Below, piece after piece: positions 30,278-61,539 of a stretch of DNA of 64,000 nt (position 1 is the stretch's first letter; each line of letters begins with the position of its first letter). Position numbers and translations under genes: made by a program. This stretch comes from Bacillota bacterium (lineage in GTDB: Bacteria > Bacillota > UBA4882 > JBLNCG01), in contig JBLNCG010000061.1 of the NCBI GenBank assembly GCA_050260475.1, forward strand, positions 6,851 to 70,850, written 5' to 3'. The notes below the pieces were generated by a model. That model made no database searches, was not told the origin of the DNA, and saw only the letters and a list, made by a program, of their open reading frames with translations.

Positions 30278-30319
30278 AGCCATTTACATATTTTGAATTA
30301 AGGTAACAAGGCAATTGCC
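30278..30319 (+). repeat. Terminal fragment of the palindromic intergenic repeat
   Basis: AAGCCATTTACATATTTTGAATTAAGGTAACAAGGCAATTGCC. Confidence 0.55.
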
Positions 30320-30378
30320 TTGTATAAAAGAGCGGTAATTTTTTAGATTAGCAATGTCTGCTCCTCTAGGATTAGTCT

Positions 30379-31773: not shown

Positions 31774-31819
31774 CCGTGGTACCGTCCAATGCCATACCTT
31801 GCCACGTTCCGACACGTTC

Positions 31820-32927
31820 CTACGCAACGCCGGCTTTCCTCCATTTCAGGTATCCTTCGATGAATGCGTCCAATTCTCCGTCCATCACAGCCTCCACGTT
31901 TCCCGTTTCCACCTCCGTACGGTGGTCCTTCACCATGGTATACGGGCAGAATACATAGGAACGAATCTGGCTCCCCCAGGCGATGTCCTGGTGTTCGCCG
32001 CGCAATTCCGAAAGCTTGGTCTCCTGTTCCTGCCGTTTCCGCTCCGCGAGTTTGGCCGCAAGGAGCTTCATAGCAGTGGCGCGGTTCTGGATCTGGGATC
32101 GCTCATTCTGACAGGTAACCACGATTCCGGTAGGAAGGTGGGTGATCCTGATGGCGGATTCGGTTTTGTTCACGTGCTGCCCACCGGCCCCTCCGGAGCG
32201 GAAGGTGTCCACTTTGATCTCCGTAGAATCGATCTGCACATCCTCGTCGTCTTCCAGTTCGGGTAAAATGTCCACGGATGAAAACGAGGTGTGGCGCCGC
32301 GAATTGGCGTCGAAAGGGGAGATGCGCACCAGCCTGTGCACGCCTTTTTCCCCTTTCAAATAACCGTAAGCATTGGTTCCGGAGATTAGAACGGTGGAGC
32401 TTTTAATGCCTGCTTCCTCCCCGGGCAGGAAGTCGATCAACTCGGTTTGAAACCCGGACCGCTCCGCCCACCGCAAATACATGCGCTGCAACATTTCGGC
32501 CCAATCCTGGGATTCAGTGCCGCCCGCGCCGGCGTGGATGATCAGGTAGGCGTTGCGGCTGTCGTATTCCCCCGAAAGCAGAGTGGTAAGCTCCATCTGC
32601 TCAAGGTCTTTCCCCAAAGCGGATAAATCGGCGGCAAATTCGCTCTCCAGCTCAGCATCCCCGGCTACCAGTTCCAGGATCTCCAACAGATCCTGCTGGC
32701 GCTTTTCCAGCATGGATATTTTTTCCACCTGATTTTTTAGGCCGTTCAATTCTTTCAATAGTTTTTGAGCCTTTTGCGGATCGTTCCAGAGATCCTGCTT
32801 TTGGCTCTCCCGTTCCAGTTCGTTTATCTTCCGTATTTTTCCGGGCAGGTCAAAGATAATTCCTCATTTCATCCATCCGCTGCCCCAGTCCTTTAATCTC
32901 CCTCTTTGCCTCAGCCGTATCCAACAT
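31820..32927 (-). CDS. prfB: Peptide chain release factor 2, with programmed +1 ribosomal frameshift at CTT TGA C (shift site 32850..32855)
   Basis: RBS GGGAG then ATG 32927. The first 25 codons are MLDTAEAKREIKGLGQRMDEMRNYL, followed by in-frame TGA preceded by the SD-like GAGG, which is the classic RF2 autoregulatory site. The +1 frame continues DLPGKIRKINELERESQ... into the body carrying SPF (VRISPFDANSRRHTS) and GGQ (RSGGAGGQHVNKTES). Confidence 0.92.
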
Positions 32928-32992
32928 TGTCGTCACTCCCGTTTTTTCAATTATCACACCAGCAATCAGTAAACAGTAATAATCACTTAAGT

Positions 32993-35617
32993 TCATGCCG
33001 TCATGCCGCAGCATTTCTTATATTTCTTTCCGCTGCCGCAGGGGCAGGGGGCATTGCGGCCTACTTTTTTACCGACCTGGCGCTGTATGACCTTGGGCCC
33101 TCCGTCTTCTCCCCGGTTGATGGAGATGTTCCGGGCGCGCTGCGCCGCAAGCATTGAATCTTCTGTCTCAATTCTGACATGGAAAAGCATGCGGACCACT
33201 TCATCCTCGATATTTTCCTGCATCTCCTGAAACATCCTGGAGGCCTCGAATTTATAGGCCAGCAAAGGATCCTGCTGCCCATACGCCCGCAGTCCGATGC
33301 CCTCCCGCAGGTCGTCCATCTCCCGCAGATGAACCATCCAGTAATCATTGATCGCTTTCAACATGACCAGGCGTTCCAGATTCCGAAGTTCCCCGGGAGG
33401 GATCTCCTTCTCCCGCTCCTGGTAACATGCCCTTGCCATATGCCTTAGGCGCTCAATCAACTTCTGGCTGTTGTTCTCTTCAAGCTCCCCGGGTTTCAGC
33501 GAACCATGCTTAAGAAAAAAGGTTTCCAGTTCCGCAAGAAGCCCGGCCAAATCGCATTCCTCGGGCATGGACCGTTCCGGAACATAGCGAAGAACGTACC
33601 TTTTGACCAAATGATCGATCATGCCAAGCACCGTGTCGTGTACGTCCTCCCCCAGCAGGAGCAGCTTTCTTTGCTTATACACCGCGATGCGCTGCTGGTT
33701 CATCACATCGTCGTATTCCAGGACATGCTTGCGGATGTCGAAATTATGCATTTCCACTCTGCGCTGGGCGTGCTCGATGCGGCGGCTGATGAATTTGCTT
33801 TCAATAGTGACATCCTCTTCCCATATTTTCCCCATCATCCGGGAAATGTTCTCCCCGCCGAAAAGCCGCATCAAATCGTCTTCCAGCGACACGTAAAAAC
33901 GGGATGATCCGGGATCCCCCTGGCGCCCGGATCGCCCGCGGAGCTGATTGTCGATGCGCCGGCTTTCATGCCTCTCGGTACCCAGGATATGCAGCCCGCC
34001 CAGTTCGATTACCTTCCTTTGCTCCTCTTTGTGGTCCTGCCGGATTTTGCTCTTCAACTCATCGATCTGTCCGGGCGTAAGATCCTTTTTGCTTTGCAGG
34101 ACGCTTTTTAAGACGGCATCCGGATTGCCCCCGAGAATAATATCGGTTCCGCGCCCGGCCATGTTGGTAGCGATGGTCACCGCCCCCAGGCGCCCGGCCT
34201 GGGCCACGATTTCCGCTTCCCTTTCATGGTGCTTCGCGTTCAATACTTGATGGGGGATGCCCCGTTTTTTCAGCATCTCGCTCAACCGTTCGGATTTTTC
34301 GATGGAGATGGTACCTACCAGCACCGGCTGCTTTCTGCCATACAATTGGACGATCTCTTCCACGACCGCCTTGAATTTGGCCTCCTCCGACTTGTAGATC
34401 ATATCCGGATGGTCCACGCGGATCATGGGCAGGTAAGTGGGTATTACCACCACCGGAAGGTTGTAAATCTTTCTGAATTCCGCCTCTTCCGTTTCCGCGG
34501 TGCCCGTCATGCCCGCAAGCTTGCCGTACATGCGGAAATAGTTCTGAAACGTGATGGATGCCAGCGTCTGGCTTTCATGCTCGATGCGCACGTTCTCTTT
34601 GGCCTCGATGGCCTGATGGAGCCCGTCGCTGTACCGGCGCCCATACATGAGCCGTCCCGTAAATTCGTCCACAATAATAACTTCGCCGTCTTTAACAACA
34701 TAATCCCGATCCCGCTTCATCAGCTCTTTGGCACGCAAGGCCTGGTTTAAATGGTGTACCAGATCCACCCGGCTGTCCTCATAGATATTCTTAATCCCCA
34801 GAAGCTGCTCCACGTGATTTAAGCCTTCTTCAGTGACCACCACGGTATGGGCCTTTTCGTCCACCGTATAATCCACATCCTTGCGGATCCTCGGCACCAG
34901 GCGGGCGAATTTATAATACAGCTCGGTGGATTCCTCAGCCTGACCCGAAATAATTAGCGGCGTTCTGGCCTCATCGATGAGAATGCTGTCCACTTCGTCC
35001 ACAATGGCGAAATTCAGCTTCCTTTGCACCATCTCCTCGGCCTGAAACACCATATTGTCCCGGAGATAGTCGAATCCGAACTCGTTGTTGGTCCCATAGG
35101 TGATATCCGCGTTATATGCCGTTTTCCTCTCCTGATAATCCAGGTTGTGCAGGATGGCGCCCACGGAAAGCCCGAGAAATTTATGGATGGCGCCCATCCA
35201 TTCGCTGTCGCGCTTGGCCAGATAATCGTTGACGGTGACAATATGAACTCCCTCGCCGGTAAGGGCGTTTAAATACGATGGAAAAACCGCGGCCAAAGTT
35301 TTTCCCTCGCCGGTTTTCATTTCCGCGATTTTCCCTTCATGAAGTACTACGCCCACGATCAACTGTGTGTCAAAAGCCCTTTGCCCTATAGTCCGCCAAG
35401 CCGCTTCCCGGACCACCGCAAAGACCCTCGTCAGCAAATCGTCAAGCGATTCCCCGCGGCTGAGCCTCTCCTTGAATTCCGCGGTCTTCGCCGCAAGTTC
35501 CGCATCGGAAAGGTTTTTCATCTCAGGCTCCAGGGCGTTAATCGCCTCCACTACCGGCGCAATCCGCTTCAGTTCCTTTTCATTGGTATCCCATAAGTTT
35601 TTCAACCAATTCCACAT
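32993..35617 (-). CDS. secA: Preprotein translocase ATPase SecA
   Basis: 874 aa with DEAD-like motor motifs and the C-terminal zinc-binding tail [14 protein letters not shown]. secA-prfB synteny is conserved in Firmicutes. Confidence 0.97.
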
Positions 35618-35787
35618 CTATAGTACCTCCCGGCAATAGAACCGGCAATTAAATACGTCCGAATTTCAAGCCTTTCGAAACCGATTGATAACTTAAATCA
35701 CCGGTTATAAAAATCATTTCAACAAATTGTACCACGCAATATTATAACACTTAGTGGTTGTTTACGCAAATTCCCGATTTTGATCAA

Positions 35788-35843
35788 CACTATATTTTAG
35801 TGGCAAGACCTTGAATTGAATTAATGTAACAACGCAATTGCCC
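35788..35843 (+). repeat. Half copy of the palindromic intergenic repeat
   Basis: CACTATATTTTAGTGGCAAGACCTTGAATTGAATTAATGTAACAACGCAATTGCCC. It borders the low-GC island. Confidence 0.7.
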
Positions 35844-35917
35844 TTAATTTAATTTTAATTGATTATTAAACCCATATATGGTAAAATTTTAAATAACATA
35901 AAAAAAGGAGGGTATTT

Positions 35918-36775
35918 ATGCGTAAAACATTTCTGATATGCGTATTTTTATTGTTATTATCCAACATGATTATATCTGCTCAAGGTGCATTTATTCTGTC
36001 ATCGGCGATCCCCGGAACCTATGCTCTGACTCCTGTGGATTCCCAAAAAACCAGATGTGATATAGAAAGCGAAATGCTCCCTTTGGATCAAATAAACGTG
36101 GATATCCCCCAAAAAAATACCATCAATAAAGCTTTTTATGTCCCGATAATTCCTGGTTCTTATAATGATGTTCTCGCTGACTATAATGAATACTTCTCCG
36201 CTAAAATCAACTTGGGTGAAAAAGATTATGCCATATATACAGGGAAAAAAACGAACAAAGTAAACGAAAAGGAAATACTTACCTTTTTTTACGGCATTGA
36301 TATAAATAATAATGGAATGCTTGAAGGTAACGAATATAAAATGGATTATTTTTTATCCTACGATCCTGATAAACATGTGTATTACGTATGGCTTAATAAA
36401 AACCGGTTTAAATTTGATATTCCTTATAACATCAACGGCATGGAAGAAACAAAAACACTCAGCGTTTACATGACTTATCTTATACAAAGGGGCTGGAGTA
36501 AGCTATGGCTTGAGGTAGATACATACTTTAGCGGCAGAGTTCTTTTATCCAACAATATTGAAATAAATATCGCAATTATGGACGGTAATAACAACGGCGT
36601 TTTCAACGATAAAGAGGATCTTATCCTGGTTGATTCAAATAAAAACTCCCGATTTGAAGAACAGGAAGCCATGCAGCTTCGCAAGGAATTCAAAATCGGC
36701 AAGGGAAAATACCGCTTCGCCCTGGACGGGCCTTATCCGACGAAAATAACCGTGGAACCGGCGCCGGAAAAATAA
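35918..36775 (+). CDS. Secreted protein with two canonical EF-hand calcium-binding loops, encoded in a low-GC (~35%) island
   Basis: RBS AAGGAGGG. Signal peptide MRKTFLICVFLLLLSNMIISAQG. The loops DINNNGMLEGNE and DGNNNGVFNDKE fit the 12-residue EF-hand consensus (D-x-N-x-N-G-x-hydrophobic-x-x-x-E). Local composition differs sharply from the window. Confidence 0.6.
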   Translation: MRKTFLICVFLLLLSNMIISAQGAFILSSAIPGTYALTPVDSQKTRCDIESEMLPLDQINVDIPQKNTINKAFYVPIIPGSYNDVLADYNEYFSAKINLGEKDYAIYTGKKTNKVNEKEILTFFYGIDINNNGMLEGNEYKMDYFLSYDPDKHVYYVWLNKNRFKFDIPYNINGMEETKTLSVYMTYLIQRGWSKLWLEVDTYFSGRVLLSNNIEINIAIMDGNNNGVFNDKEDLILVDSNKNSRFEEQEAMQLRKEFKIGKGKYRFALDGPYPTKITVEPAPEK

Positions 36776-36806
36776 TTACCTGAATGAAACTTATGTAACG
36801 GAAAAC

Positions 36807-36843
36807 AGGGGCCGTCCTTTATGAGTCGACCCCCTTTTTCTTT
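36807..36843 (+). terminator. Terminator hairpin (AGGGG...CCCCT) followed by TTTTCTTT, between two convergent genes
   Basis: Imperfect stem followed by a T-run immediately after the stop of 35918..36775. Confidence 0.4.
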
Positions 36844-36848
36844 GCTGA

Positions 36849-37187
36849 TTAAAGCGCTGTCTTTCCTTCCTCTCCCGTACGGATTCGGACAACATCGTCC
36901 ACATTGGTCACAAATATTTTCCCATCTCCGATTTCACCCGTTCTGGCGTTTTCGATTATCGTTTTCTTAATAATGTCCACTTCCGCATCCTGAACGACGA
37001 CTTCCAATTTTATCTTGGATATCAAGTCCACCTTGTATTTTTCACCCCGCCACTGCTGGACAAGGCCTTTTTGTTTGCCGTGGCCTTCAATTTCGGATAT
37101 CATCAAGCCTGAATAGCCCACTTGATTAAGCGCCCGCCTGATGTCTTCCAGTTTTTCCGGCCTGATAATCGCCGTGACATTTTTCAT
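36849..37187 (-). CDS. glnK: Nitrogen regulatory protein P-II
   Basis: 112 aa of the GlnB/GlnK family (T-loop region GHGKQKG). It lies immediately downstream of amt. Confidence 0.93.
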   Translation of the reverse strand: MKNVTAIIRPEKLEDIRRALNQVGYSGLMISEIEGHGKQKGLVQQWRGEKYKVDLISKIKLEVVVQDAEVDIIKKTIIENARTGEIGDGKIFVTNVDDVVRIRTGEEGKTAL

Positions 37188-37188
37188 T

Positions 37189-38559
37189 TTATTTAGCCTC
37201 CTTCAGCACTGTATGACCGCCGGATATGGTGGCGTTAAAACCATTTGAACCCATAACCGCATGAATAGGTTTCCGGGCGGGAAATTCCGGATAGGCGGTA
37301 TTGCCGTGTTCACCGATATCAAGACCTTCGATTTCCTCCTGCAGACTGACACGGATTCCAAAAGTCAGCTTAATAATAATCCAGGCGGCTATTGATATGG
37401 CAAATACGAATACCGCCACGCCAAGTACCCCGGATAACTGCGTAAAGAGCAGTTTGAAGCCGCCCCCGAAAAGAAGGCCGTTTCCTGTTGCAGTTCCGGT
37501 AATGGAATTCTGTGCAAAGAGGCCTAACGCCAGCGTGCCGAATACCCCGTTTACCAGATGAACCGATAAAGCGCCGACGGGATCGTCTATTTTTAAACGA
37601 TCAAACATTATGACCGAAAATACTACCAAAATTCCGGCAATTGCCCCGATAATCACGGAACTTCCTACATTTACAAAGGCGCAAGACGCAGTGATGGCAA
37701 CCAAACCCGCCAGGCATCCGTTCAGGGTCATGCCCAGATCGGGCTTGCCTAAAAGCACCCAGGCTAATGCGGTAGAGCTTAAAACAGCCGCAATCGCCGC
37801 GGTATTCGTGGTCATAAGGATATGGGATATCGCTTTCGGATCGGCAGCCATAGTAGAGCCGGGGTTGAATCCGAACCATCCGAGCCAGAGTACGAAAGCG
37901 CCGATGGTAGCGATGCTCATATTATGGCCGGGGATAGGATTGATTTTGCCGTCCTTCGTATACTTGCCGAAACGCGGACCGAGCATCAATATTCCGGCCA
38001 ATGCCGCCCACCCTCCCACGGAATGGACCGCCGTGGAGCCTGCGAAATCGAACATCCCCATATTTGCCAGCCATCCGCCGCCCCAGATCCAGTGGCCGAC
38101 GACGGGGTAAATCACCACTGCCATTACGAAAGTGAACATTATAAAAGAGAGGTATTTAATCCTTTCCGCGACAGCCCCGGAAACTATAGTTGCCGCCGTT
38201 CCGCAAAAAACCAAATGAAAGAAAAATTTGGCCAAAAGCGGCACTCCCGTCCAGGATAGCGCGGAATAAACGCCCCTGTATGCCGCGCCGACTGCAGGCG
38301 AATTATCCGCTCCACTGATGAACCACAACCCTTTTAGTCCGACAAACGGATTGCCGTCTCCGAACATGAGCCCCCACCCCAACAGAAGAAATCCAAGGGA
38401 AGATATGGCAAAGACAATGAAATTCTTGGACAATATATTGACGCAATTCTTGGCGCGGGCAAAACCTGATTCCACCATGGCAAACCCCAGGTTCATGAAG
38501 AATACCAGCATCGCTGCCAATAGGACCCATAATGTGTCTAAAACCACTTTAACATCCAT
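37189..38559 (-). CDS. amt: Ammonium transporter
   Basis: 456-aa Amt/MEP family protein with multiple TM helices and conserved Amt Phe/His gate residues. It forms an operon with glnK. Confidence 0.93.
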   Translation of the reverse strand: MDVKVVLDTLWVLLAAMLVFFMNLGFAMVESGFARAKNCVNILSKNFIVFAISSLGFLLLGWGLMFGDGNPFVGLKGLWFISGADNSPAVGAAYRGVYSALSWTGVPLLAKFFFHLVFCGTAATIVSGAVAERIKYLSFIMFTFVMAVVIYPVVGHWIWGGGWLANMGMFDFAGSTAVHSVGGWAALAGILMLGPRFGKYTKDGKINPIPGHNMSIATIGAFVLWLGWFGFNPGSTMAADPKAISHILMTTNTAAIAAVLSSTALAWVLLGKPDLGMTLNGCLAGLVAITASCAFVNVGSSVIIGAIAGILVVFSVIMFDRLKIDDPVGALSVHLVNGVFGTLALGLFAQNSITGTATGNGLLFGGGFKLLFTQLSGVLGVAVFVFAISIAAWIIIKLTFGIRVSLQEEIEGLDIGEHGNTAYPEFPARKPIHAVMGSNGFNATISGGHTVLKEAK

Positions 38560-38817
38560 TGCTTTCCCTCCCGCTTTTATTATTTCATTCGTGAATATGG
38601 ACGCGTTTTAAATTGCCCGCATCACCTCCTTTATTTAATAACAGCCGGTATAGCGTCTAAAAGTACTTTCCGCCCGGCCCGGATATGTATATAAAAAAGC
38701 GCCTACGCAGACCATGCTATAGACGCCTTTGCCGGGATACACCTTCGTATCGGATAAATTTATAGAATTGTCAGACTAAGGCTTTCCTGTTTCCCCGCGG
38801 GATGTGAATGGCGTTGG

Positions 38818-38865
38818 CTTTTAAAAATTAAGAAGGCGACCTGTCTTTTCGGGACAGACGCCTTC
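38818..38865 (-). terminator. Leader terminator/attenuator in the 5' region of amt-glnK (reverse-strand hairpin GAAGGCGTCTGTCCCGAAAAGACAGGTCGCCTTC followed by TTAATTTTTAAAAG)
   Basis: A near-perfect 15-bp stem sits ~270 nt upstream of the amt start codon and is followed by a U-rich tract. This fits ANTAR-controlled antitermination by the adjacent GAF-ANTAR protein. Confidence 0.55.
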
Positions 38866-39054
38866 GCCTTCAAATACGCCTTTGTATTTATGAATTCATA
38901 ATACCAAATAAGGGTTTGGAAGTCAAGGCGGCTGCCTCGTAAAAATCCAACTTTTCATATGGTAAAAAACGCTCTAAGACAATGCTTTTCATGGACAAAT
39001 AGTTCTTTAACAGAGCACGTCTTTATGCTAATATTGTTATGTGGAGGGAAACGC

Positions 39055-40284
39055 ATGAATTTAGAAATGAAGGAACTTCAACTTCTGCATCTTTTAAATA
39101 AGACAGTGGGTTCCTCACTGGAGATAAACAAAATCCTGCAGCAAATCGTGGAAATAGTCCGCGATATCACCGGGGGGGACAGTTGCTTCATCTACCTGCT
39201 TGACCAAAAACGGAAACGTCTGGTACTGAAAGCTTCATGGAAAAAACACAGCAGGATCCTGGATCAGATATCGGTCAAATTGGGGGAAGGAATCACCGGC
39301 TGGGTCGCGCAGGCAAAAACGCCTGTATCCATTGCCTATAAAGCCTATAACGATTCCCGATTCAAGTATTTTCCCCGGCTGCCCGAGGACAAATTTGAGG
39401 CGTTCCTTTCTGTGCCGGTTATTTCCAATGATAAATTAATCGGAGTCATCAACGTTCAGCACGCCAAGCCGCATGAATACACCGAAACCGAGATCGCCCT
39501 TGCCGCCACCGCCGCCCAGTATGCCGGGGTTTCCATCATCAATGCGCGGCTTTACGAAGAGGCCCGTAAAAAGAACTCCCAACTGGAAGCGCTATTCCAG
39601 ATCAGTCAGTCACTGGTCTCCAACAAATATTTTGAGGAAATCCTCACATTTATAGCCACGACCACGGCTGAAATCGTCAAGGTCAGCGTATGCTCCATCA
39701 TGCTGATAAACGGCGATAAAAAATCCTTTCGCTTCAAAGCCATCTCCTGCCCGGATCAGGTTTATCACCGCGATATCAGCATACCCATTCAAAGCACTGT
39801 TTGCGGCCAGACCTACCGGACCAGCAGACCCGTTTACGTGGCTGATGTTCGCCGGGAATCCAAATTTGCGTTGCCGGATTTCGCGAAAAAATACAACCTT
39901 TGCTCCATGCTCTCCGTTCCGATGATGTGCAAGAATGAAATGATGGGCGTAGTGAACGTTTACACAGTCAAACCCCACGAGTTCAGCGAAGAGGAGATCA
40001 GCCTGCTGCAGGCGGTGGCCAATCATGCGGCGGCGGCTATTCACCACACCAGGCTTGCTCAGGAGATCGATAAAACCAAGAACGACCTGATGACCCATAA
40101 AAAACTGCAGCGCGCGAAAAGTATCCTGATCAACAATTATAAGATTTCGGAAGAGGAAGCGCACCGGCTGATCCTGAAAAAAAGCATGGATCTCGGCAGG
40201 CCCCTGCTGGAAATCGCAGAGGCCATCATCACAGGCGCAATAGTCCGGCCAGGCATGAACGACCTTACCGGAGACGCGGAGTGA
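39055..40284 (+). CDS. GAF-GAF-ANTAR RNA-binding antitermination regulator
   Basis: RBS GGAGGG then ATG 39055. Two GAF domains. The C-terminal ANTAR helix bundle is HKKLQRAKSILINNYKISEEEAHRLILKKSMDLGRPLLEIAEAII. It is divergent from amt-glnK. Confidence 0.8.
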   Translation: MNLEMKELQLLHLLNKTVGSSLEINKILQQIVEIVRDITGGDSCFIYLLDQKRKRLVLKASWKKHSRILDQISVKLGEGITGWVAQAKTPVSIAYKAYNDSRFKYFPRLPEDKFEAFLSVPVISNDKLIGVINVQHAKPHEYTETEIALAATAAQYAGVSIINARLYEEARKKNSQLEALFQISQSLVSNKYFEEILTFIATTTAEIVKVSVCSIMLINGDKKSFRFKAISCPDQVYHRDISIPIQSTVCGQTYRTSRPVYVADVRRESKFALPDFAKKYNLCSMLSVPMMCKNEMMGVVNVYTVKPHEFSEEEISLLQAVANHAAAAIHHTRLAQEIDKTKNDLMTHKKLQRAKSILINNYKISEEEAHRLILKKSMDLGRPLLEIAEAIITGAIVRPGMNDLTGDAE

Positions 40285-40338
40285 AAAGGGGATATAACAT
40301 TCTTACATTCGCCACAAACTTGAATAGGAGGACCTGAA

Positions 40339-41244
40339 ATGGCTGTTGAAATTAAAAGAATCGCTTATGGGGGCTGGCCCAACTGCTATTCTGTCTCGGA
40401 CGGCACAGTGGAATTGGTGGCCACCTCCGACGTAGGGCCGCGTATTATCAGGCTGGGATTTGCAAATGAGCCGAACCTTTTCGCGGAGTTACCGGAGACT
40501 CTGGGAAAAACAGGCGGCGAATCCTGGAACATTTACGGCGGTCATCGATTATGGCACAGTCCGGAGACGCGCGGTCGCACATATTACCCTGATAATTTCC
40601 CCATAGAGGTTCAAGCGTCGGCCGGCGGCATCCGCCTGAAACAGCCCGTGGAACCGAATACGGGCATTGAAAAGGAGATCATCATCACCGTTGATCCAAA
40701 AAATCACAACTGCCAAATAGAACACCATCTTACGAACCGCAATAATTGGCCGGTGACCTTCGCTCCCTGGGCCATCAGCGTGATGCGGCCGGACGGTGTC
40801 GGCATCGTGCCGCAAACGCGCAAGCCGGATGAGGAAGGCATGTTGCCAAACCGAGTCCTTTCCCTGTGGCCTTATACGGACATGAACGACACCCGCGTTA
40901 CATGGGGCAACCGCTATATTCTTTTAGCCCAGGACCGGCAAAAAAAGGACCCCTTCAAATTCGGATTGTCCGTTCCCGAAGGCTGGGCGGCATATGCCTG
41001 GGACGGATATCTTTTTATGAAAAAATTCGCTTACGATCCCGTCGCTATATATCCCGATGGGAATGTAAACTATGAGTCCTATACCAGCGACACCATTTTA
41101 GAGGTGGAAACCCTGGGTCCCTTGCAGACCCTTAATCCCGGATCTACAGCCGGGCATGTGGAAACCTGGCATTTATTTAAAAACATTGGCAAGATAGAAA
41201 CCGAAGCGGATGTAGAAAAGATAATTATCCCTTTGATTAAATAA
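40339..41244 (+). CDS. Hypothetical protein (all-beta, possibly mutarotase-like fold)
   Basis: 301-aa ORF, RBS GGAGG. No confident motif. Confidence 0.45.
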   Translation: MAVEIKRIAYGGWPNCYSVSDGTVELVATSDVGPRIIRLGFANEPNLFAELPETLGKTGGESWNIYGGHRLWHSPETRGRTYYPDNFPIEVQASAGGIRLKQPVEPNTGIEKEIIITVDPKNHNCQIEHHLTNRNNWPVTFAPWAISVMRPDGVGIVPQTRKPDEEGMLPNRVLSLWPYTDMNDTRVTWGNRYILLAQDRQKKDPFKFGLSVPEGWAAYAWDGYLFMKKFAYDPVAIYPDGNVNYESYTSDTILEVETLGPLQTLNPGSTAGHVETWHLFKNIGKIETEADVEKIIIPLIK

Positions 41245-41361
41245 AGCCCGTTATACGGTTAAATATTGATATAGCTAAACGCCCTTTCCATTCACGAGAA
41301 AGGGCGTTTAGCTATATCAGCCTCTGCTCATTGTGCTTTTTTAAGCGCCGGTATGCCGTTA

Positions 41362-41520
41362 TTATTTTATTACCTGAAACCGGATTCCGGAACGTAAGAC
41401 CCGCTCATATTCTATGGCCATCTGCAGCAAATCTTCCTTTAACGCCCGCTTGATGATAGGATTTAATTTCATATTACCGCTGCCTTCCATGGTTCTTATA
41501 ACGTTGCCGTTGTTGCTCAT
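41362..41520 (-). CDS. Small hypothetical protein (52 aa)
   Basis: A strong RBS AAGGAG lies 8 nt upstream of ATG 41520. Sequence MSNNGNVIRTMEGSGNMKLNPIIKRALKEDLLQMAIEYERVLRSGIRFQVIK. Confidence 0.4.
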   Translation of the reverse strand: MSNNGNVIRTMEGSGNMKLNPIIKRALKEDLLQMAIEYERVLRSGIRFQVIK

Positions 41521-41665
41521 GATAATTGCTCCTTGATAGATTATTAATGGATTGTCATTCCTAATATACCAAGGGGTTGTAAAATACATATTACCGGCAT
41601 GTTAAAAAATTTAAAATGATTATGGTAATTTTGTTAAAATCCACTAAGAACCGCCATTTTATTAG

Positions 41666-42955
41666 CTATTTGCTTTTTTCCCTTGGGCCGCGCAGGATTG
41701 TAATTAAAATTAAGGCAAGCAGCACGGCGGCGGCGGTTGCCGCTATGTTACAAACCGCTTGCCATGGTTGGGACGGCCTTTTTTTCGGATCCCGCAATAC
41801 ATTGCTCACATCCGCAGGGCCCAGGCCGCATAAATCCTGTTTTTCCTTCTCCAGATATGCTTTGTAAAGTTCCATGTCGTAGCGGGGTTTTTCCGCGTCC
41901 CGGTTGCCGAAATAAAGGTAATAAGGGCCCTTGCCCGCTGATTCAAAAACCATTTTATCCACATAATAATCGACCCGGATATTCCTGATGGGGAGAGGCC
42001 GGTCGTCCCCGTTCGCAATCCTTATCTTCACCGTCCTCCAGGAGATGGGATTGTATGCCAGATCGATGCTGGCATCCTCAATATGCCTCCCCTGGAACGG
42101 GATATGATACAACTCTTCACTTCTGCTGTCGAAGGAGTTGTGTTCGGCTTCCGCGTATATGGTGAACAGGCGCTGGAAATCGCCGCTGATTTCAAAATAT
42201 ATCTGCTTCAGACAGAGTCGGTTCCTGTTATCCAGAATGACAACAGTTTGTTTAACTCCGTTTTTGATCTCATACGGCAGCTTCGTACTGTACACATACC
42301 TGAACAAATCTTCCGCAACGGAGTCGTAAATCAAATTTAAATGCTTTACAATAAGGCCGTGGGTATTTGCGGGGATTTTTATACGGTAGAAATTATACCT
42401 GCAAAACGCCGGAAGATCAATCTCCTGCAGCGCCAGGTAATCCAGACGGTAAATTTCCCGGCTTCCAAGGGGCTCCCAGACAAAGCCGTCATGACTGCCA
42501 TAAAGGTCCACCCTTTTATGGAAGTTACCCCCGGACACCTCAAGGGCAACTTTGTTGCCTATAATATCCGCGCCTTCTTTCTTCGCAATCACCCGAAAAT
42601 CAAAATACTGGTCCCTGTTTTTACGAAAAGTGTTGATCCATATCGCGTTGTACCTTATCTCCCGCTGTGTCTCCCCGGTGTAACCGTTTTGAAGATAATA
42701 AGGGACGAAATCGCCATGCGCATCCACGATCCGGAGATCCGCGAGATCGGGAAGGGCTCTCTTATAAACCTCCTCGTCAAGAAAAAAGGCTTTGTATTTT
42801 TCCTTGCCCCTCAGGATGATCTCTTTGCGGCAGCCCCAGGAAGGCATCATATCCCTGGCGGCGGCTCCGGCCGCCGCCGCAATGATGCATAAAAACAACA
42901 GAATCCCACATCCATTGATACGCATTGCCACCTTCCTAGAACGATTTTCAATCAT
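41666..42955 (-). CDS. Secreted protein of unknown function with C-terminal membrane anchor
   Basis: N-terminal signal sequence ILLFLCIIAAAAGAAA, a large beta-rich ectodomain, and a C-terminal TM helix AVCNIAATAAAVLLALILITIL. Confidence 0.5.
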   Translation of the reverse strand: MIENRSRKVAMRINGCGILLFLCIIAAAAGAAARDMMPSWGCRKEIILRGKEKYKAFFLDEEVYKRALPDLADLRIVDAHGDFVPYYLQNGYTGETQREIRYNAIWINTFRKNRDQYFDFRVIAKKEGADIIGNKVALEVSGGNFHKRVDLYGSHDGFVWEPLGSREIYRLDYLALQEIDLPAFCRYNFYRIKIPANTHGLIVKHLNLIYDSVAEDLFRYVYSTKLPYEIKNGVKQTVVILDNRNRLCLKQIYFEISGDFQRLFTIYAEAEHNSFDSRSEELYHIPFQGRHIEDASIDLAYNPISWRTVKIRIANGDDRPLPIRNIRVDYYVDKMVFESAGKGPYYLYFGNRDAEKPRYDMELYKAYLEKEKQDLCGLGPADVSNVLRDPKKRPSQPWQAVCNIAATAAAVLLALILITILRGPREKSK

Positions 42956-43059
42956 GGCGGGTTTATTCCGGAAGCTTGCTTCTCACTCCCTTTTTTGGAA
43001 AGAATGGAAACTTATGAATAATTCTTCCTATATGCCTGAAATCCTTTCGGGGCGGCCGC

Positions 43060-44010
43060 ATGTCATCAACATCCAAACCGGAGCATATTATCAGTTATCA
43101 GCGATCAGTAGAGGGAGGATCCGGTGTGGATCGGAATATTCCTGAGCCAATACCTAGGATAACCAGGGCGGCCCTTAGAGAGATGAGATTCTGGAACCCG
43201 TTATGCGCCGAGCATATAGGTTTGATCAAAGACGGGTTTGAGCCGGACGCAAAAGACCGGACCGAAAAAGCGCAGGGACTTATCTCCATGTTTCAAGGCC
43301 TTGCGGCGATTCTCCAATCCGAAAAACCTGTGGCGCCGCCGGACGCTTCGGATCTGATACATAATTCCGCCGGAACAGTTGAAGCCGCTCTGGATTTTTT
43401 CCTTTCCGTACAGGAAGGGATGTCCGGCGGATGGTTCAAAACCGCCCTGCCGGATAATGCCATAGCGCATATCATCAAGGAAACCCTGTATTATCAAGAT
43501 AAATTGCATGCAGCCGACCGGGACTCCCGCTTACCTGAATCCGCTTCCGCCGGTTCCGGCACGGCCCCGCAAGTATGGACCCGTTCGAAACTTATCGCGG
43601 CGCCGCCGGAAACCTTGAGCGGGCAGGCCCTAGCCGAAATACTCTTTTGGGTGGAGATATCCGCGGAGCATGGAGATTTTTTGGCCGAAAAGTCCGGCCC
43701 GGTACTCCAGGAACGGTTTACCCGTGAAATTCTGAGTTTTGTTAATGATTTCGACGGGCTCCATGCCAGGCTGGAGCAAGGGCGGGGGCATCCGGGGGCG
43801 CTTGCGGATCTCCTGCGCTGCACCGCTGTTTTAAATCAACATTGGTTAAATTTCCTGGAGGCATTGAACGAAAGCGCCATTGGGGAGCGAATCCCCGCCG
43901 GTCGCGGGGTTCTCCGGCCGGGCCCCGCAATCCATATCCGGCATGAACAGGCATATTTTCAGGCGATTGTGGTAAAATTCATCGACAGGTTGGATAGGCG
44001 AAACATTTAA
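43060..44010 (+). CDS. Hypothetical protein with duplicated FW...AEH helical repeats (DUF2935-like)
   Basis: Two internal repeats, RFWNPLCAEHIGLIK and LFWVEISAEHGDFLAEK, resemble the duplicated motif of DUF2935 proteins of Clostridia and Bacilli. Confidence 0.4.
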   Translation: MSSTSKPEHIISYQRSVEGGSGVDRNIPEPIPRITRAALREMRFWNPLCAEHIGLIKDGFEPDAKDRTEKAQGLISMFQGLAAILQSEKPVAPPDASDLIHNSAGTVEAALDFFLSVQEGMSGGWFKTALPDNAIAHIIKETLYYQDKLHAADRDSRLPESASAGSGTAPQVWTRSKLIAAPPETLSGQALAEILFWVEISAEHGDFLAEKSGPVLQERFTREILSFVNDFDGLHARLEQGRGHPGALADLLRCTAVLNQHWLNFLEALNESAIGERIPAGRGVLRPGPAIHIRHEQAYFQAIVVKFIDRLDRRNI

Positions 44011-44129
44011 AGAGCAATTTACGTTGTTATGATAATCTTACGTCTTGCCACTAAATATCGATAGCCTGATGGTAGCCATACATTGTATTCAATGGCAAGA
44101 CCTAGCATTAGGGTAACAACGCAATTGCC
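44011..44129 (+). repeat. Full copy of the ~120-bp palindromic intergenic repeat (reference copy)
   Basis: AGAGCAATTTACGTTGTTATGATAATCTTACGTCTTGCCACTAAATATCGATAGCCTGATGGTAGCCATACATTGTATTCAATGGCAAGACCTAGCATTAGGGTAACAACGCAATTGCC. The nested inverted repeats would fold into a long hairpin. Confidence 0.85.
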
Positions 44130-44139
44130 TTTTAATAAA

Positions 44140-44183
44140 AGCAAATTGCGGGTAAAAATATAGTTGCCAACGCAAATTACTCT
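44140..44183 (+). repeat. Mini-copy consisting only of the two repeat termini
   Basis: AGCAAATTGCGGGTAA...GTTGCCAACGCAAATTACTC resembles the left and right terminal motifs joined without the core. It lies 10 bp after the full copy. Confidence 0.35.
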
Positions 44184-45193: not shown

Positions 45194-46252
45194 TTATAAT
45201 CCCTGACCCGCCGCCTTCGAAGGCGGCAATTTCGCCTTATCCATACCTTCGCGCCATGGGAATTCCCGTGCGGCATCTACAAACGCCGCAAGATTTTCCA
45301 GCGGAACCCCCGCCGGAAGGTCGCATCCGGATGATAAAATAAAATTAGCTTTTCCGTTCATATTCTTAAGGATAATTCCGGTTTCTTCCCGCACCATTTC
45401 CGGAGTGCCCTGCAAGAATATCCCGGACGGATCCACATTGCCGAAGAGGACCAGATCGGGCGGGATCTGCGCCCATACCTCCTGCAGATTCATGCAGGAC
45501 CCCACGCTCAAGCCTTCCGTCCCGATCTTTGAATATGACTCCATAAGATGCCCTATACGGCCGCAATTGTGGAGCACCGGGCTTGCCCCCGCGGATTTTA
45601 TTTTTTCCATGAGCTGTCTCACATAAGCATTGGAAAATTCCCCGGCTTGAGACGGTGAAAACAAACTGGCCGTGGGTTCAAGGATCCAGACGCAATCGGG
45701 ACCGGATGCAAGGATCCCGGAGAGATATTCCTGCAGGAATGCATGGCAGAATTCAAGCAAGCCATGCACAAACTCCGGTTCCAACGCCACGTTCACGGCC
45801 AGTTCGGTGGTTCCCATCAATCTGCCTGCCATGGACAGGGGCCCCAGGATATATCCGCATTTCACCGCCTCCGTAGGCAGATTTTTCACAATCATCCGCA
45901 CAGTGTCGATGAATACATGGAGGCGGCCTTCTCCGCCTGCGGAAGGGAGTTTAAGCTTGGATAAATCCCCGGCGCAGCAAACCGCGTGGCCTTCCACCGC
46001 AGGCGCTTCGTCGCTCATTTTTACTTTTGCGCCGGCGGCCTCGCACTCCACGGTGAGATCCATCATGGGGAAGACAAAATCCGGCCGGAACCTGTCATAC
46101 AAAGAACTGACGGTATCAAACTGTCTGGCTGCCGATGTAAGGTTCTCCTGCAGATTGCCGCCGGTCAGCCGCATGCCGGGAAATCCCGCCAACGGAGCAA
46201 TTATGGGCCGTTTCGCAGAGTTGATCCTATTGTATAATTTCATGTCTTTCAT
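45194..46252 (-). CDS. URO-D family methyltransferase (MtaA/CmuA-like; methylcobamide-dependent methyltransferase)
   Basis: 352-aa URO-D fold protein (RPIIAPLAGFPGMRLTGGNL...). It lies in a cluster with a corrinoid protein. Confidence 0.6.
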   Translation of the reverse strand: MKDMKLYNRINSAKRPIIAPLAGFPGMRLTGGNLQENLTSAARQFDTVSSLYDRFRPDFVFPMMDLTVECEAAGAKVKMSDEAPAVEGHAVCCAGDLSKLKLPSAGGEGRLHVFIDTVRMIVKNLPTEAVKCGYILGPLSMAGRLMGTTELAVNVALEPEFVHGLLEFCHAFLQEYLSGILASGPDCVWILEPTASLFSPSQAGEFSNAYVRQLMEKIKSAGASPVLHNCGRIGHLMESYSKIGTEGLSVGSCMNLQEVWAQIPPDLVLFGNVDPSGIFLQGTPEMVREETGIILKNMNGKANFILSSGCDLPAGVPLENLAAFVDAAREFPWREGMDKAKLPPSKAAGQGL

Positions 46253-46504
46253 CTTCCTTTCCTACTTTAAAATATAACCTTGCGGTTAAAGAGTATATGT
46301 TTTTTTTAAGATGCGTGGTATTTTCTTGGCTTTCACCGGGAAATGCACAAATTATTGCCAAGTATAAAAAAAAATTACAATAAAAATCATCAGAGGCAGG
46401 TATATGATGAAAGTGGATTGAAAATAGTCACCGTCCCGTTTTTTCAAAAAAGGACCTCCGGCGTTCACCTCGAAAATATATAATGTCATTTCCGGGAGGT
46501 GGCC

Positions 46505-47773
46505 ATGGAGGAGTTGGAAAAAGCCGTTAAAACCATCCGGGCATATGCCGATTCCACCCGGGTGCGCGCATTTCTGGTGGACCAGAAAGGTAAAAACATC
46601 CTGCCGGGCGGGGCTTCCGATGATTCCTGCCCATTCTGCCGGATCATACAGGAGAAATTCAAAAAAGCCGAGGAATGCTGCCGTGCGCACCTGTACGGGA
46701 GCTATCAGGCGGAATATTTCGGGGAGGCGTACATATTCTTCTGCCCCTTCGGACTGGTGCACTGGGCGGCGCCGGTCATGGCGGAGCATAGGATGGCCTG
46801 CGCGCTGGTTGCCGGTCCGGTGCTCATGACCAGCCCAGAGGATGCGCTCATCACGGATATTCTTGTAAAACAGGGGATCAGCGCCGATGAAATCGCTTTG
46901 CTTTACCATGCTTTAAACGGCATCCCGATTCTGAAACCCCAGACAGTCAACAGCATGGCGTTGATACTTTTCGCCGCAGCCTCGCATCTCTCGAAATTCG
47001 GCGCCGAAAATATACTGGCCGTAAACAGCGCCTTTTTCGAGCAGCAGGCGTCTATTTCGCAGTGCCTTCACGGCATGAAGAACGGCATTCCGGCGCAAAT
47101 CGCCTACCCGCTGGAAAAGGAAAAGGAACTGGCCGTTAAAATCCGCCTGGGAGACAAGGCGGGCGCAAAAGAGCTATTGAACGAAATCCTCGGCACGATT
47201 TTTTTCGCCCAGGGGAACAGCCTGGAAACCATCCGTACCCGTGTAACCGAACTGGTGGTCACGCTATCCCGCGCCGCTTTGGAAGGCGGGGCCGACAACC
47301 AGAATATTTTGAACCTCAATTCAAGATATCTGGCCGAACTTAACAATATATATACGCTGGATGAAATGGCCATCTGGCTTTCGGGAGTCATGGCGCGCTT
47401 CACGGAAAGCGTTTTTAACCTTTCCAACGTCAAGAACATCGACATCATATACAAAGCTACGACTTACCTGCGTGAAAACTACATGCACGAGATCACCCTG
47501 GAAAAGGTGGCAAAAGTGGTGGCCTTAAGCCCGACCTATTTCAGCAAGCTCTTCAAGGATGAAATGAAGCAAAGCTTCGTTCATTACCTGAATGGACTGC
47601 GCATCGAGAAAAGCAAGAAATTCCTGCTGGATGACGCCATTCCCCTGGTCCATGTGGCAGGCCTGTCCGGCTTTCAGGATCAGAGTTATTTCACGAAAGT
47701 ATTCAAAAAAATGACGGGAGTGTCACCGGGAGAATTCAGAAAATCCCGCGGCCTGGCCAAATACATCGGCTGA
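46505..47773 (+). CDS. AraC-family transcriptional regulator with Cys-rich N-terminal sensor domain (possibly PocR-like)
   Basis: C-terminal AraC HTH is VAKVVALSPTYFSKLFKDEMKQSFVHYLNGLRIEKSKKFL. The N-terminal ~170 aa carry CPFCR...CC...C. RBS GGGAGG then ATG 46505. Confidence 0.75.
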   Translation: MEELEKAVKTIRAYADSTRVRAFLVDQKGKNILPGGASDDSCPFCRIIQEKFKKAEECCRAHLYGSYQAEYFGEAYIFFCPFGLVHWAAPVMAEHRMACALVAGPVLMTSPEDALITDILVKQGISADEIALLYHALNGIPILKPQTVNSMALILFAAASHLSKFGAENILAVNSAFFEQQASISQCLHGMKNGIPAQIAYPLEKEKELAVKIRLGDKAGAKELLNEILGTIFFAQGNSLETIRTRVTELVVTLSRAALEGGADNQNILNLNSRYLAELNNIYTLDEMAIWLSGVMARFTESVFNLSNVKNIDIIYKATTYLRENYMHEITLEKVAKVVALSPTYFSKLFKDEMKQSFVHYLNGLRIEKSKKFLLDDAIPLVHVAGLSGFQDQSYFTKVFKKMTGVSPGEFRKSRGLAKYIG

Positions 47774-47825
47774 AAACCGCAAGTTACGCGGAAAAATGGT
47801 TAAATCAAAAACGGGAGGAAAGAAC

Positions 47826-48458
47826 ATGGATTTAAAACAAATTTCCGAACTGCTGCAGCAGGGCAAGGCGAAGGATGTAAAAGAGCTTGTAGCGAAAGCC
47901 ATTGAGGAGGGCGCCGACCCCGGGGATATCCTGTCTCAGGGATTATTGGACGGCATGGCGGTGATTGGCGCCAAATTCAAGATCAACGAGGTTTACGTGC
48001 CCGATGTACTGATCGCTTCCAGGGCCATGAACGCCGGCATGGAGATCCTCAAACCTCATCTGGTGAAAAGCGGCGTAAAACCCATCGGTAAGGCCATCAT
48101 CGGCACGGTGGAGGGGGATCTGCACGATATCGGAAAAAACCTGGTGAAGATTATGTTTGAAAGCGTGGGCCTCGAGGTCATCGATCTGGGCATCGACGTC
48201 TCCGCGGAAAAATACGTCGCGGCTGTAAAGGAGCATAATCCGCACATTCTCGCCATGTCCGCCCTGCTCACCACGACCATGGTCAACATGGAAAAAATCA
48301 TCAAGGCCACCCAGAAGGAGGGCCTGCGCGGCAGCCTCATCATTATGGTGGGAGGCGCTCCGGTTACGGATAATTTCGCCAAATCCATCGGCGCGGACCT
48401 CTATGCCCCGGACGCCGCCACTGCAGCGGAACTTGCCAGGGATAAGATAGTGCATTAA
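47826..48458 (+). CDS. Corrinoid (cobalamin-binding) protein of a methyltransferase system (MtaC/MtbC-like)
   Basis: The B12-binding Rossmann domain carries GDLHDIGKN (DxHxxG) and the MSALLTTTM block. The N-terminal helical cap is ILSQGLLDGMAVIG. RBS GGGAGG. Confidence 0.85.
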   Translation: MDLKQISELLQQGKAKDVKELVAKAIEEGADPGDILSQGLLDGMAVIGAKFKINEVYVPDVLIASRAMNAGMEILKPHLVKSGVKPIGKAIIGTVEGDLHDIGKNLVKIMFESVGLEVIDLGIDVSAEKYVAAVKEHNPHILAMSALLTTTMVNMEKIIKATQKEGLRGSLIIMVGGAPVTDNFAKSIGADLYAPDAATAAELARDKIVH

Positions 48459-48512
48459 TATTATATGGATATTTAAAATTATGGCCCGCCATATATGAAA
48501 GGGGAAAAGCGG

Positions 48513-49574
48513 ATGGACATCGGACAAAACATCCAAACGATAGTGAATATTTATCAAAAAAACTTCGGCCTGTTGGTCGGGGCCACCTTTGTGGCATGTC
48601 TGCTTTCTTTCATAACCTTCGGCATCTTGGCCGGACCCCTAATCGGCGGACTTATCGTTTTATGCTTGAAGCTGCATAAAGGGGAAAAAGGCGAATTTAC
48701 CGAAATATTCGCCCATATGAGCTCCTTTCTGCCGGCGTTGTCTTTGACAATCGGACTTTGGGCGGGCATGATTGCGGCGAAGATAATCGGTTTCGTACCG
48801 GTTGTCGGCAGGCCGTTATTCGCGGTATGTTCTTCAGTTCTGGGCATTATATATGTGTTCTCCATCATATATGTGGTGGATAAAGGAGAAAAACCGCAGG
48901 ATGCCGTAAAAAAAGGATCGGCTCTCTTCCTTGCGGATCCGCTTAGGGTTTGGTTATATATTCTTATCGTAGCAATCCTGGGAGGCATCGGCATAATTCT
49001 TTTGTTACCGGTCATCTGCACCATGCCTATCGCTGTGGTGGGAACGGCCTTGGCTTATCAGGATCTGTCCGCTATGGGCGGCGCAAGCAAAGTGCCTGAA
49101 CAATACCGGCAAATTGCAGGATATATAGTGGCGGCATTAATCGTCACCGGTTTGATCTGTATGTTCACCATAAACAGCCGCTCCGTTTTTAGCGGACGAC
49201 TTGGGGCGCCTTCCGGGAAAAAAAAGTATGACATCGGCGCCGGAAGAAAAAATCCCGGCAACAAGCTGCCCGGGAGTTTCCCCAGGGACATCCCCATTTA
49301 CAAAGGCGCCGAAGTGGAAAGTTTTACGGGAGTAATTAAGAATAAAGAGGCGGGCGCCGCCGTTTCTACAGTAATCCTTGTAACCAGGGATAAAGCCGAA
49401 GCGGTGGAGAAGTTTTATACCCAAAAACTGCAGGCTAATGCGTGGGAAGTATCCGCCACCCGGTTCGGGGCGGTTATCCTCCTGGGCAAGAAGTTAAACA
49501 GGGAATGCACGGTCACCATAGCGCCTCAAAAAGGAAAAATTCGCATCACTCTTGTGGAAAGCAGGAAGCAATAA
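48513..49574 (+). CDS. Hypothetical membrane protein with C-terminal soluble domain
   Basis: Five to six TM helices in the N-terminal 230 aa. RBS AAAGGGGA. Confidence 0.5.
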   Translation: MDIGQNIQTIVNIYQKNFGLLVGATFVACLLSFITFGILAGPLIGGLIVLCLKLHKGEKGEFTEIFAHMSSFLPALSLTIGLWAGMIAAKIIGFVPVVGRPLFAVCSSVLGIIYVFSIIYVVDKGEKPQDAVKKGSALFLADPLRVWLYILIVAILGGIGIILLLPVICTMPIAVVGTALAYQDLSAMGGASKVPEQYRQIAGYIVAALIVTGLICMFTINSRSVFSGRLGAPSGKKKYDIGAGRKNPGNKLPGSFPRDIPIYKGAEVESFTGVIKNKEAGAAVSTVILVTRDKAEAVEKFYTQKLQANAWEVSATRFGAVILLGKKLNRECTVTIAPQKGKIRITLVESRKQ

Positions 49575-55024: not shown

Positions 55025-55294
55025 TAATCCGGAGTATAAAGTCTATATTTCCTGTCTTCGTCTTATTGTACACCAGTTTACCATCGGTTTCAACCGTTTT
55101 CGGTCTGGCAAATATAACAATTGTGTCTTATATTCATCGTGGGTAAAATCATACTCTGGCGCTGTAACGGACGGCGGCTACATAAATCCTGATTGAATAT
55201 AGCCGGCCCCTGGAGATGGAGATTAAGTATGGAAAGTCCTTTTTTCGAAAGAATAATTATTGTCTATATTGGATAACAAGCGGTTCTTATAATA

Positions 55295-55413
55295 GGCAAT
55301 TGCGTTGTTGCCTTTATTCAAGACCTTGCCGCCAAATATAGTGTATGGCTACCATTAGGCTATCGATATTTAGTGGCAAGACGTAAAATCATCATAACAA
55401 CGCAAATTGCTCT
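55295..55413 (-). repeat. Full copy (reverse orientation) of the palindromic intergenic repeat
   Basis: GGCAATTGCGTTGTTGCCTTTATTCAAGACCTTGCCGCCAAATATAGTGTATGGCTACCATTAGGCTATCGATATTTAGTGGCAAGACGTAAAATCATCATAACAACGCAAATTGCTCT. Confidence 0.85.
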
Positions 55414-55667
55414 ATAACAATATATTTGGGCCCAATTTTATCACTTACTTGCCGAATTGCGGTTTAATATCTGATACCTGCTTAAGAGAATTTTTTGACA
55501 TCTTGTTTGTGATATGTCCGACTTATGGTAAAATAAAGGAAAGATTTGGCTTAACGGTTATGCGGAATATATGAAAAGAATAAAATATAGATTGATACCA
55601 TTCATTTGGTTACAGGTAAAAAATTTACATAATTTAGCATCGATAAAACTTCCGGGAGGCGATTTAC

Positions 55668-56432: not shown

Positions 56433-56521
56433 CGGCATCCTGCAACTGCTTGTTTCAAAAGAAAGTGAAAGGACCATGTTGAACTTCAACTGATTACCGG
56501 TTACTGAATACCGTCACTGAT

Positions 56522-57526: not shown

Positions 57527-57703
57527 CGAAACCGCCCCCTCACTGTCAAAGACATTATAATTGGATTATTTTTTTTATATTTCGCCTTTCGCTTTCCCAT
57601 ACCTTTTACGGTTTGGAACTTATCCATTTTTCACCTGTTAATTTTCTAAAACATCTGAGCCTTAAGCATATTATATCGCGAACATATGTTTGGATCAAGT
57701 TTA

Positions 57704-57720
57704 AAACAACGCAAATTGCC
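57704..57720 (+). repeat. Terminal fragment of the palindromic repeat
   Basis: ACAACGCAAATTGCC. Short, so the assignment is tentative. Confidence 0.3.
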
Positions 57721-59137: not shown

Positions 59138-59182
59138 AATGAGTGATGCATCTTTATTACGGCATGACAGGAGTGAGAGGAA

Positions 59183-60694: not shown

Positions 60695-60696
60695 CC

Positions 60697-61434: not shown

Positions 61435-61539
61435 AGGGGAACACAATAAGGCTTCGAAGGCTCTGGGTTACCCTCTCTTCCGAAAAAGAGAGGGCAGGGG
61501 TGAGTTTCTCACAACGCTTTAACTGTCGGCGATAAACTT

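Follow-up and report, generated by a model that had tools for sequence, protein, structure and literature searches.

MITEs are a well-known kind of mobile element. They are 50-800 bp long, with terminal repeats of at least 10-15 bp and duplications of 2-10 bp, encode no transposase and lie mainly in intergenic regions (PMC11602168). The bacterial families Correia (CREE) in Neisseria, Chunjie in Geobacter and QMITE in Coxiella consist of small non-coding elements in multiple copies, mostly located between genes. They have terminal inverted repeats, a strong potential to form hairpins, short duplications, size variants and many truncated copies (PMC10969869, PMC11602168). In QMITE and Chunjie, truncated copies that lack ends have been reported (PMC10969869).

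Within the Bacillota, bcr1 is an interspersed repeat with mobile-element features and many chromosomal copies, restricted to the Bacillus cereus group. It is ~100-400 bp long and occurs in 11-130 copies per genome with an AT-rich 5-nt flanking motif; the motif is a constant TTTAT, and a site-specific mechanism has been proposed (PMC6542083). TIMEs are non-autonomous miniature elements of the Tn3 family; like the Tn3-family elements themselves they use AT-rich targets and make 5-6-bp duplications, and the smallest TIME reported is 262 bp (PMC4133298). REP, REPIN and BIME sequences are abundant, intergenic and hairpin-forming, and occur as inverted pairs and as singlets.

Here we describe a 120-bp element that is present at 14 loci in a 64,000-nt stretch of DNA (the window) from the ordinary chromosome of a spore-forming Bacillota bacterium. 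The element shares with the bacterial MITEs all of the properties listed above, and nothing that was searched had sequence similarity to it. Correia elements duplicate TA, whereas this element is flanked by AT-rich duplications of 4-5 bp. Compared by description only, bcr1 is the nearest analogue within the Bacillota. In contrast to bcr1, the flanks of the element vary between copies (ATAAC, TTAAA, TTATA, AACTT, GTTAA) and none is TTTAT; such variation is expected of true target duplications. The host lies outside the B. cereus group, and the density of the element, ~1 locus per 4.5 kb, would be several-fold above that of bcr1 if it holds genome-wide. We conclude that the element family is real and is most probably a previously undescribed family of MITEs.

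The element and its copies in the window

The element runs from GAGCAATTTGCGTTGTTA at the left to TAACAACGCAATTGCCTT at the right, and its ends are 18-bp terminal inverted repeats (GAGCAATTTGCGTTGTTA / AAGGCAATTGCGTTGTTA). It is built of two ~46-nt arms that are imperfect inverted copies of each other, with matches at 37 of 47 positions. Each arm consists of the 18-bp terminal repeat, a 12-nt spacer and an inner repeat of 13-19 bp (GTCTTGCCACTAAATAT). The spacer differs systematically between the left and the right arm and is mismatched. A core of ~28 nt lies between the arms, making the whole an almost complete palindrome. The preliminary description of this locus had reported the outer and inner inverted repeats, and both were borne out, with the right outer repeat corrected to GTAACAACGCAATTGCCTT.

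Four of the 14 loci are full copies, one is a near-full diverged copy and nine are truncated copies or solo ends. Together they sum to 1,000 bp and account for 1.56% of the window; within intergenic DNA their share is 11%. The 120-bp consensus is non-coding and has a GC content of 37%, compared to 51% in the window. The four full copies align over ~120 nt with a mean column identity of 78% (flanks counted), and their pairwise identities are 81-86%. Searches with short patterns also picked out the family: the arm pattern GGCAAGAC-N12-TAACAACGCAA matched 10 times in the window (0.01 expected) and the left terminal repeat GCAATTTGCGTTGTT matched six times (0.02 expected).

The full copy at the locus first reported is on the plus strand at 44012-44131. 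The second is on the minus strand at 55293-55412, in the divergent region between a UbiA-family gene and a creatininase gene, and the third is on the plus strand at 61540-61659, 3' of a DUF2161 gene. The fourth, on the plus strand at 2753-2861, lies 20 nt past the asnB stop codon; both of its ends are present, and an 11-bp deletion in the core reduces it to 109 bp. These bounds, refined by alignment, place the four full copies where they had been described.

Three truncated copies retain a large part of the element. The copy at 4863-4962 (+), in the divergent region between asnB and cwlD, lacks the left terminal repeat, and the ATG of cwlD is 36 nt downstream of its right end. The copy at 6843-6923 (-), upstream of a MatE gene, has the left two-thirds of the element, and the copy at 15070-15137 (-), upstream of a gene for a BpsA_C-domain protein, has the right half. 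Other loci are shorter. A left-arm fragment (~33-40 nt) at 9779-9811 (-) is 25 nt upstream of the likely start of the GH3 gene (ATG at 9837), a right-arm fragment at 35787-35842 (+) is in the divergent secA/orf285 region, and a right terminal repeat with its spacer is at 30293-30320 (+). Two loci are solo left terminal repeats. One of these, at 13336-13352 (+), matches at 17 of 17 nt and lies where two co-directional genes are 24 nt apart. The other, at 57704-57721 (-), matches exactly at 15 of 15 nt and is 29 nt upstream of the ATG at 57751.

Some copies form a second subfamily that is more diverged, with a shorter core and with GCCGCT in each of the inner arms. Its members are the near-full copy at 2349-2447 (-), which has a degraded right end, a remnant at 44139-44182 (-) and one copy outside the window. 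The remnant is an internally deleted 44-bp version in which the left arm is fused to the final 12 nt at the right end, and 7 bp separate it from the full copy at 44012-44131. There are two close pairs of loci, 2349 with 2753 and 44012 with 44139.

Partial loci were found with a profile HMM made from copies of the element, and 57704-57721 was detected through 15 nt that match the terminal repeat exactly. All of the partial loci in the preliminary description were recovered in this way, and the remnant at 44139-44182 is newly found. The earlier count of at least 12 loci in 64 kb rises to 14.

Another feature lies on the plus strand at 2489-2590, between two element copies and between two minus-strand genes (pgi and asnB). 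A TATAAT-like hexamer (~2507-2512) is followed by a C-rich stretch, CACACCCCCCTTTTC, and by a plus-strand intrinsic terminator, AAAGCCCC-CCAG-GGGGCTTT and then GTTGTTTTATT. Judged by these motifs, the region could encode a candidate small RNA with a C-rich anti-Shine-Dalgarno-like motif. It had no Rfam match at the gathering score.

Copies in an independent assembly

We looked for the same DNA in an independent short-read assembly (Logan, SRR24035587), in which the same genes are spread over short contigs. Of six contig ends examined, four are within copies of the element (window positions 44051, 55386 and 61593, and L006:7956-7986). Contig L005 corresponds to window 31813-44051 and has one end within the copy at 44012. 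Contig L007 corresponds to window 55386-61593 and has both ends within copies, and the far end of contig L006 is within another copy (L006:7956-7986). The contig that contains AsnB is only 2,091 bp long, which corresponds to the spacing of the copies at 2753 and 4863. The same elements are present in both assemblies, ruling out an artifact of one assembly.

The family also extends past the window. Contig L006 reaches 5.3 kb beyond the window start, and in this DNA there are two more copies, a full diverged copy at L006:4305-4414 and the copy at the contig end. Thus, the density of the element continues beyond the window, and the family is not limited to the few copies first listed, an outcome that the preliminary description had named as evidence against it.

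Two contig ends, at window 2669 (L006) and 31813 (L005), are not at copies of the family; their cause could be low coverage or another repeat. On L005, 3' of secA, the release factor 2 gene (31820-32993; L005 11056-12232) is called as two pieces, of 48 aa and then ~297-312 aa, and in relatives there is a single product of 368-369 aa. Programmed +1 frameshifting in prfB is well known, and the two-piece call is consistent with it.

The host belongs to an uncultured, deep-branching lineage of the Bacillota for which the databases contain no close relative. The SecA of the host is identical to MGE5559195.1. The next best identities are 66% for SecA and 63% for AsnB, and the named relatives are Hydrogenispora (SecA, 65%) and Desulforudis (AsnB). 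By exact look-up, the proteins flanking the copies were each found on one contig, all from one sample. No copy of the family was found in the secA neighborhoods of the closest relatives (66% identity, ~60 kb of DNA).

Location of the copies relative to genes

All 14 loci are outside curated genes, although intergenic DNA is only 14.8% of the annotated span, and copies are in both orientations relative to the neighboring genes. Both properties had been noted from the sequence, and both hold for the enlarged set of loci. The neighboring genes are functionally unrelated. Among the 31 intergenic regions that are 50 bp or longer, 12 contain a copy. These include 5 of the 8 divergent regions and 7 of the 17 co-directional regions, and none of the 6 convergent regions. 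The copy at 61540 had appeared to be in a convergent setting on the basis of a minus-strand ORF, 61658-62083, that is probably spurious.

In the same part of the window, 61700-64000, no ORF had a Pfam match, and exact-protein look-ups with three versions of the ORFs returned no record. One ORF there, 61906-62391 (+), looks like a small membrane protein.

The window contains pgi, asnB, cwlD, secA, prfB, amt/glnB, GH3 and amylase genes and a corrinoid methyltransferase cluster. The cluster (45194-49574) encodes a URO-D-family protein, a PocR-sensor/AraC regulator, a B12-binding protein and an unannotated 359-aa ORF, a gene content that suggests a corrinoid-dependent methyltransferase (demethylase) system. 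Another URO-D-like gene is at 8625-9719. We scanned ~50 ORFs of the window against Pfam and found no transposase, integrase or Y1-transposase domain, in keeping with the initial observation that no transposase is associated with the copies.

Flanking duplications indicate that the element is most probably a MITE

We set the ends of the element where conservation between copies stops and compared the 5 nt on each side of five full copies, the four in the window and the one at L006:4305-4414. The copy at 61540-61659 has AACTT on both sides (61535-61539 and 61660-61664), and the copy at 55293-55412, read in the orientation of the element, has TTATA to its left (window 55413-55417) and again to its right (55288-55292). 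The other pairs differ at one or two positions: TTAAA (44007-44011) and TTAAT (44132-44136) around 44012-44131, ATAAC and ATAAA around 2753-2861, and GTTAA and GTTTA around L006:4305-4414. At 44012-44131 the left duplication contains the stop codon of the DUF2935 gene (TAA, 44008-44010); that is, the insertion was exactly at the stop.

Compared as direct repeats, left and right flanks agree at 22 of 25 positions; for the first four positions of each flank, they agree at 19 of 20. Of the 120 permutations of left and right flanks, the true pairing gave more matches than any other (mean 12). When the flanks were compared as inverted repeats, they agreed at 12 of 25 positions, which is background, and matching at positions beyond the 5-nt flanks was also at the background level. 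Therefore, the duplication is 4-5 bp long, in an AT-rich target. AACTT is the most telling duplication because it is not palindromic and does not resemble the other flanks. The target duplication is the weakest link in the argument for a MITE: there are only five full copies, three of the five flank pairs are inexact, and the AT-richness of the flanks raises the chance of matching.

Other properties fit as well. Copies are 109-120 bp long with no coding capacity, the terminal inverted repeats are 18 bp where at least 10-15 bp is required of a MITE, and the family is multi-copy and intergenic, with 14 loci in 64 kb and two more in the 5.3 kb outside. The preliminary description had placed the element among MITEs, REP/BIME-like sequences or structured RNAs. 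Of these classes, only the first agrees with the terminal repeats, duplications, lack of coding capacity, presence in both orientations, one-ended remnants and intergenic location. It is very probable that the element is a MITE that is moved in trans by a transposase encoded elsewhere. We infer its mobility from the duplications alone; mobilization in trans and the copy number genome-wide are also inferences.

A MITE of this kind would spread as follows. The terminal repeats (GAGCAATTTGCGTTGTTA / AAGGCAATTGCGTTGTTA) would be bound by a transposase from elsewhere in the genome. This enzyme would insert the element at AT-rich sites through staggered cuts, 4-5 bp apart, and repair would duplicate 4-5 bp of the target. 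Purifying selection would remove insertions within genes, leaving only intergenic copies. Older copies would decay by point mutation and by deletions from the flanks that remove one end, giving half-copies and solo ends. With identities of only 81-86% between copies, the family may have ceased to be active. In the window we found no insertion sequence whose ends match those of the element and that could be its parent. Transposase families with duplications of 4-5 bp include Tn3, IS1380, IS701, IS5, IS3/IS150 and IS21.

Solo terminal repeats

The two solo left repeats are exact 15-mers (13338-13352 and 57705-57719), and both cease to resemble the element at the same internal position. In contrast, the left terminal repeat is mutated in two of the four full copies. 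Simple decay of a MITE does not predict the conservation of the solo repeats and their common endpoint; with two loci, this may be coincidence.

It is possible, although unlikely, that the family is hyper-abundant and partly domesticated, with the 15-17-bp left repeat acting as an independent binding module for a regulator of the host or one derived from a transposase. The basis for this reading is the exact conservation and common endpoint of the two solo repeats, one beside a start codon and the other inside an intercistronic hairpin. If the family were domesticated in this way, the arm fragments at ribosome-binding sites (GH3 and cwlD) and a motif of the left arm, TGTTATGAT, would supply promoters or operators. 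Together with a hexamer in the flank, TGTTATGAT scores as an inward-directed extended -10 promoter at two copies, as a match to consensus only.

The hairpin at 13330-13363 has a perfect 9-bp stem (AAGATGGAG / CTCCATCTT) around the stop codon of orf324 and the solo repeat, which is in its loop. The 3' arm of the hairpin is followed after 2 nt by the ATG of an AlkZ-related gene, so that the hairpin may affect translational coupling.

Folding of the element and comparison with REPINs and structured RNAs

The nested palindrome of the preliminary description is real. Each strand folds into a single long hairpin with nested stems and a folding energy of -33 to -52 kcal/mol (z of -4 to -8), and there was no strand preference that was consistent across copies. 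The longest perfect palindrome in the window is a different one, unrelated to the MITE family: an inverted repeat of 22 nt with a 9-nt loop (TGATATAGCTAAACGCCCTTTC ... GAAAGGGCGTTTAGCTATATCA) at 41267-41319, just 3' of orf301.

We analyzed covariation in the nested hairpin using six full-length sequences. Paired positions made up 83.7%, compared to 83.2% in column shuffles, and 115 of 500 shuffles reached the observed value. Of the pair cells, 16% were broken, and copies have uncompensated changes. There was a double change at one pair only, from A-U to G-C between the subfamilies. That is, these sequences gave no signal beyond shuffles of selection for RNA or DNA structure. The palindrome looks to have been inherited from a master copy and to be decaying, rather than being maintained in each copy separately.

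A long, near-perfect hairpin on either strand, formed by two inverted ~46-nt arms around a short center, is also what would be expected of a REPIN or REP-like element, which is spread as single-stranded DNA by a RAYT (related to IS200/IS605) and not by a DDE transposase. The abundance and strictly intergenic location of the element, the solo arm pieces, which resemble REP singlets, and the A-U to G-C double change would fit this as well. We nevertheless think it very unlikely that the element belongs to this group. REP/REPIN and IS200/IS605 transposition makes no target duplications, and direct duplications of 4-5 bp flank the element. Its arms are not short GC-rich palindromes, it has no conserved GTAG unit, and it is AT-rich (37% GC). 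Copies are on the promoter side of genes, in 5 of 8 divergent regions compared to none of 6 convergent (3'-end) regions, and the window has no RAYT or Y1-transposase domain. The comparison with REP/BIME in the preliminary description is thus not supported, owing to the duplications and the lack of a short palindromic unit of the GTAG type.

The second class proposed there was a structured RNA. More generally, the element could be a multi-copy RNA or cis-regulatory element (a small RNA, terminator/attenuator or operator cassette) that is kept by selection and not by transposition. Consistent with this, the hairpin is very stable, many loci are close to start codons (9779, 57704 and 4863, at 25-36 nt), two copies have the extended -10-like TGTTATGAT in the left arm and a -35-like hexamer in the flank, and two solo terminal repeats are exactly conserved. 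The covariation at the level of shuffles, the broken pairs and the uncompensated changes argue against it, as do the presence of copies in both orientations beside functionally unrelated genes, flanking duplications that indicate insertion events, and the lack of an Rfam family at the gathering score or a consistent strand. No intrinsic terminator with a U-tract was called at the two copies examined, a weak result, as the scanner is blind to hairpins this long. Based on these results, a structured RNA or regulatory cassette seems highly improbable, no more so and no less than a REPIN.

Searches for relatives of the element

We searched for relatives of the element in several collections. In Rfam 15, the whole window gave no match at the gathering score (the best sub-threshold match had 21 bits against a cut-off of 66 bits), and a full copy gave only chance-level matches at E values up to 10, so that the Rfam check proposed at the outset was negative at both gathering and permissive thresholds. 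A blastn search of a full copy against plasmids and phages had no match, and the element was not found in one scan of viral contigs. These phage and plasmid searches gave no sign of the other outcome that had been raised against an independent family, that copies are fragments of a known insertion sequence or prophage. Neither the arm pattern nor the two terminal repeats with a variable gap were found in JGI metagenomes. A scan of a genome collection with the arm pattern gave at least four matches, and those examined were chance matches in unrelated genomes. The strings of the terminal repeats were not found in the full text of the literature, nor was SRR24035587.

The parent of the MITE might specifically have been a Tn3-family transposon, which would make the element TIME-like. 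The AT-rich target and the duplication are alike in the two, and the ~46-bp arms are near the ~38-bp length of Tn3 repeats. Tn3-family repeats typically start with GGGG, whereas the ends of the element start with GAGC and AAGG, a comparison with this general rule rather than with aligned Tn3 repeats. In addition, TIMEs are at least 262 bp long with Tn3-type repeats of 38 bp, and the element, at 120 bp, is below this minimum. Duplications of 4-5 bp are also made by other insertion sequence families, and there is no Tn3-type transposase or resolvase nearby. We regard a Tn3 parent as the least probable of these alternatives.

Three other candidates were rejected: a tRNA-derived core (no tRNA was found); an IS200/IS605-type palindrome-associated element, a kind that has neither terminal inverted repeats nor duplications, both of which are present here; and integron attC sites, which are found in one orientation at the 3' ends of cassettes with core sites RYYYAAC (R'') and GTTRRRY (R'), whereas copies of the element are in both orientations between unrelated housekeeping genes and its ends, judged by eye against this general consensus, do not conform.

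Implications

A further family of bacterial MITEs will not surprise specialists, as such families are common in bacteria. The local density of this family is unusually high, with a copy or remnant in 39% of sizeable intergenic regions. If the 16 loci in 69 kb are representative of the whole genome, a genome of ~3 Mb would have several hundred loci, and these would make up more than 10% of its intergenic DNA. The element fragments short-read assemblies of its host, and this matters for binning and for the quality of MAGs. The 18-bp terminal repeats provide a direct handle for finding the parent transposase. With its insertions on the promoter side of genes and its conserved solo ends, the family is a candidate source of regulatory variation. 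If it were in fact partly domesticated, unrelated genes would be wired into one regulatory network.
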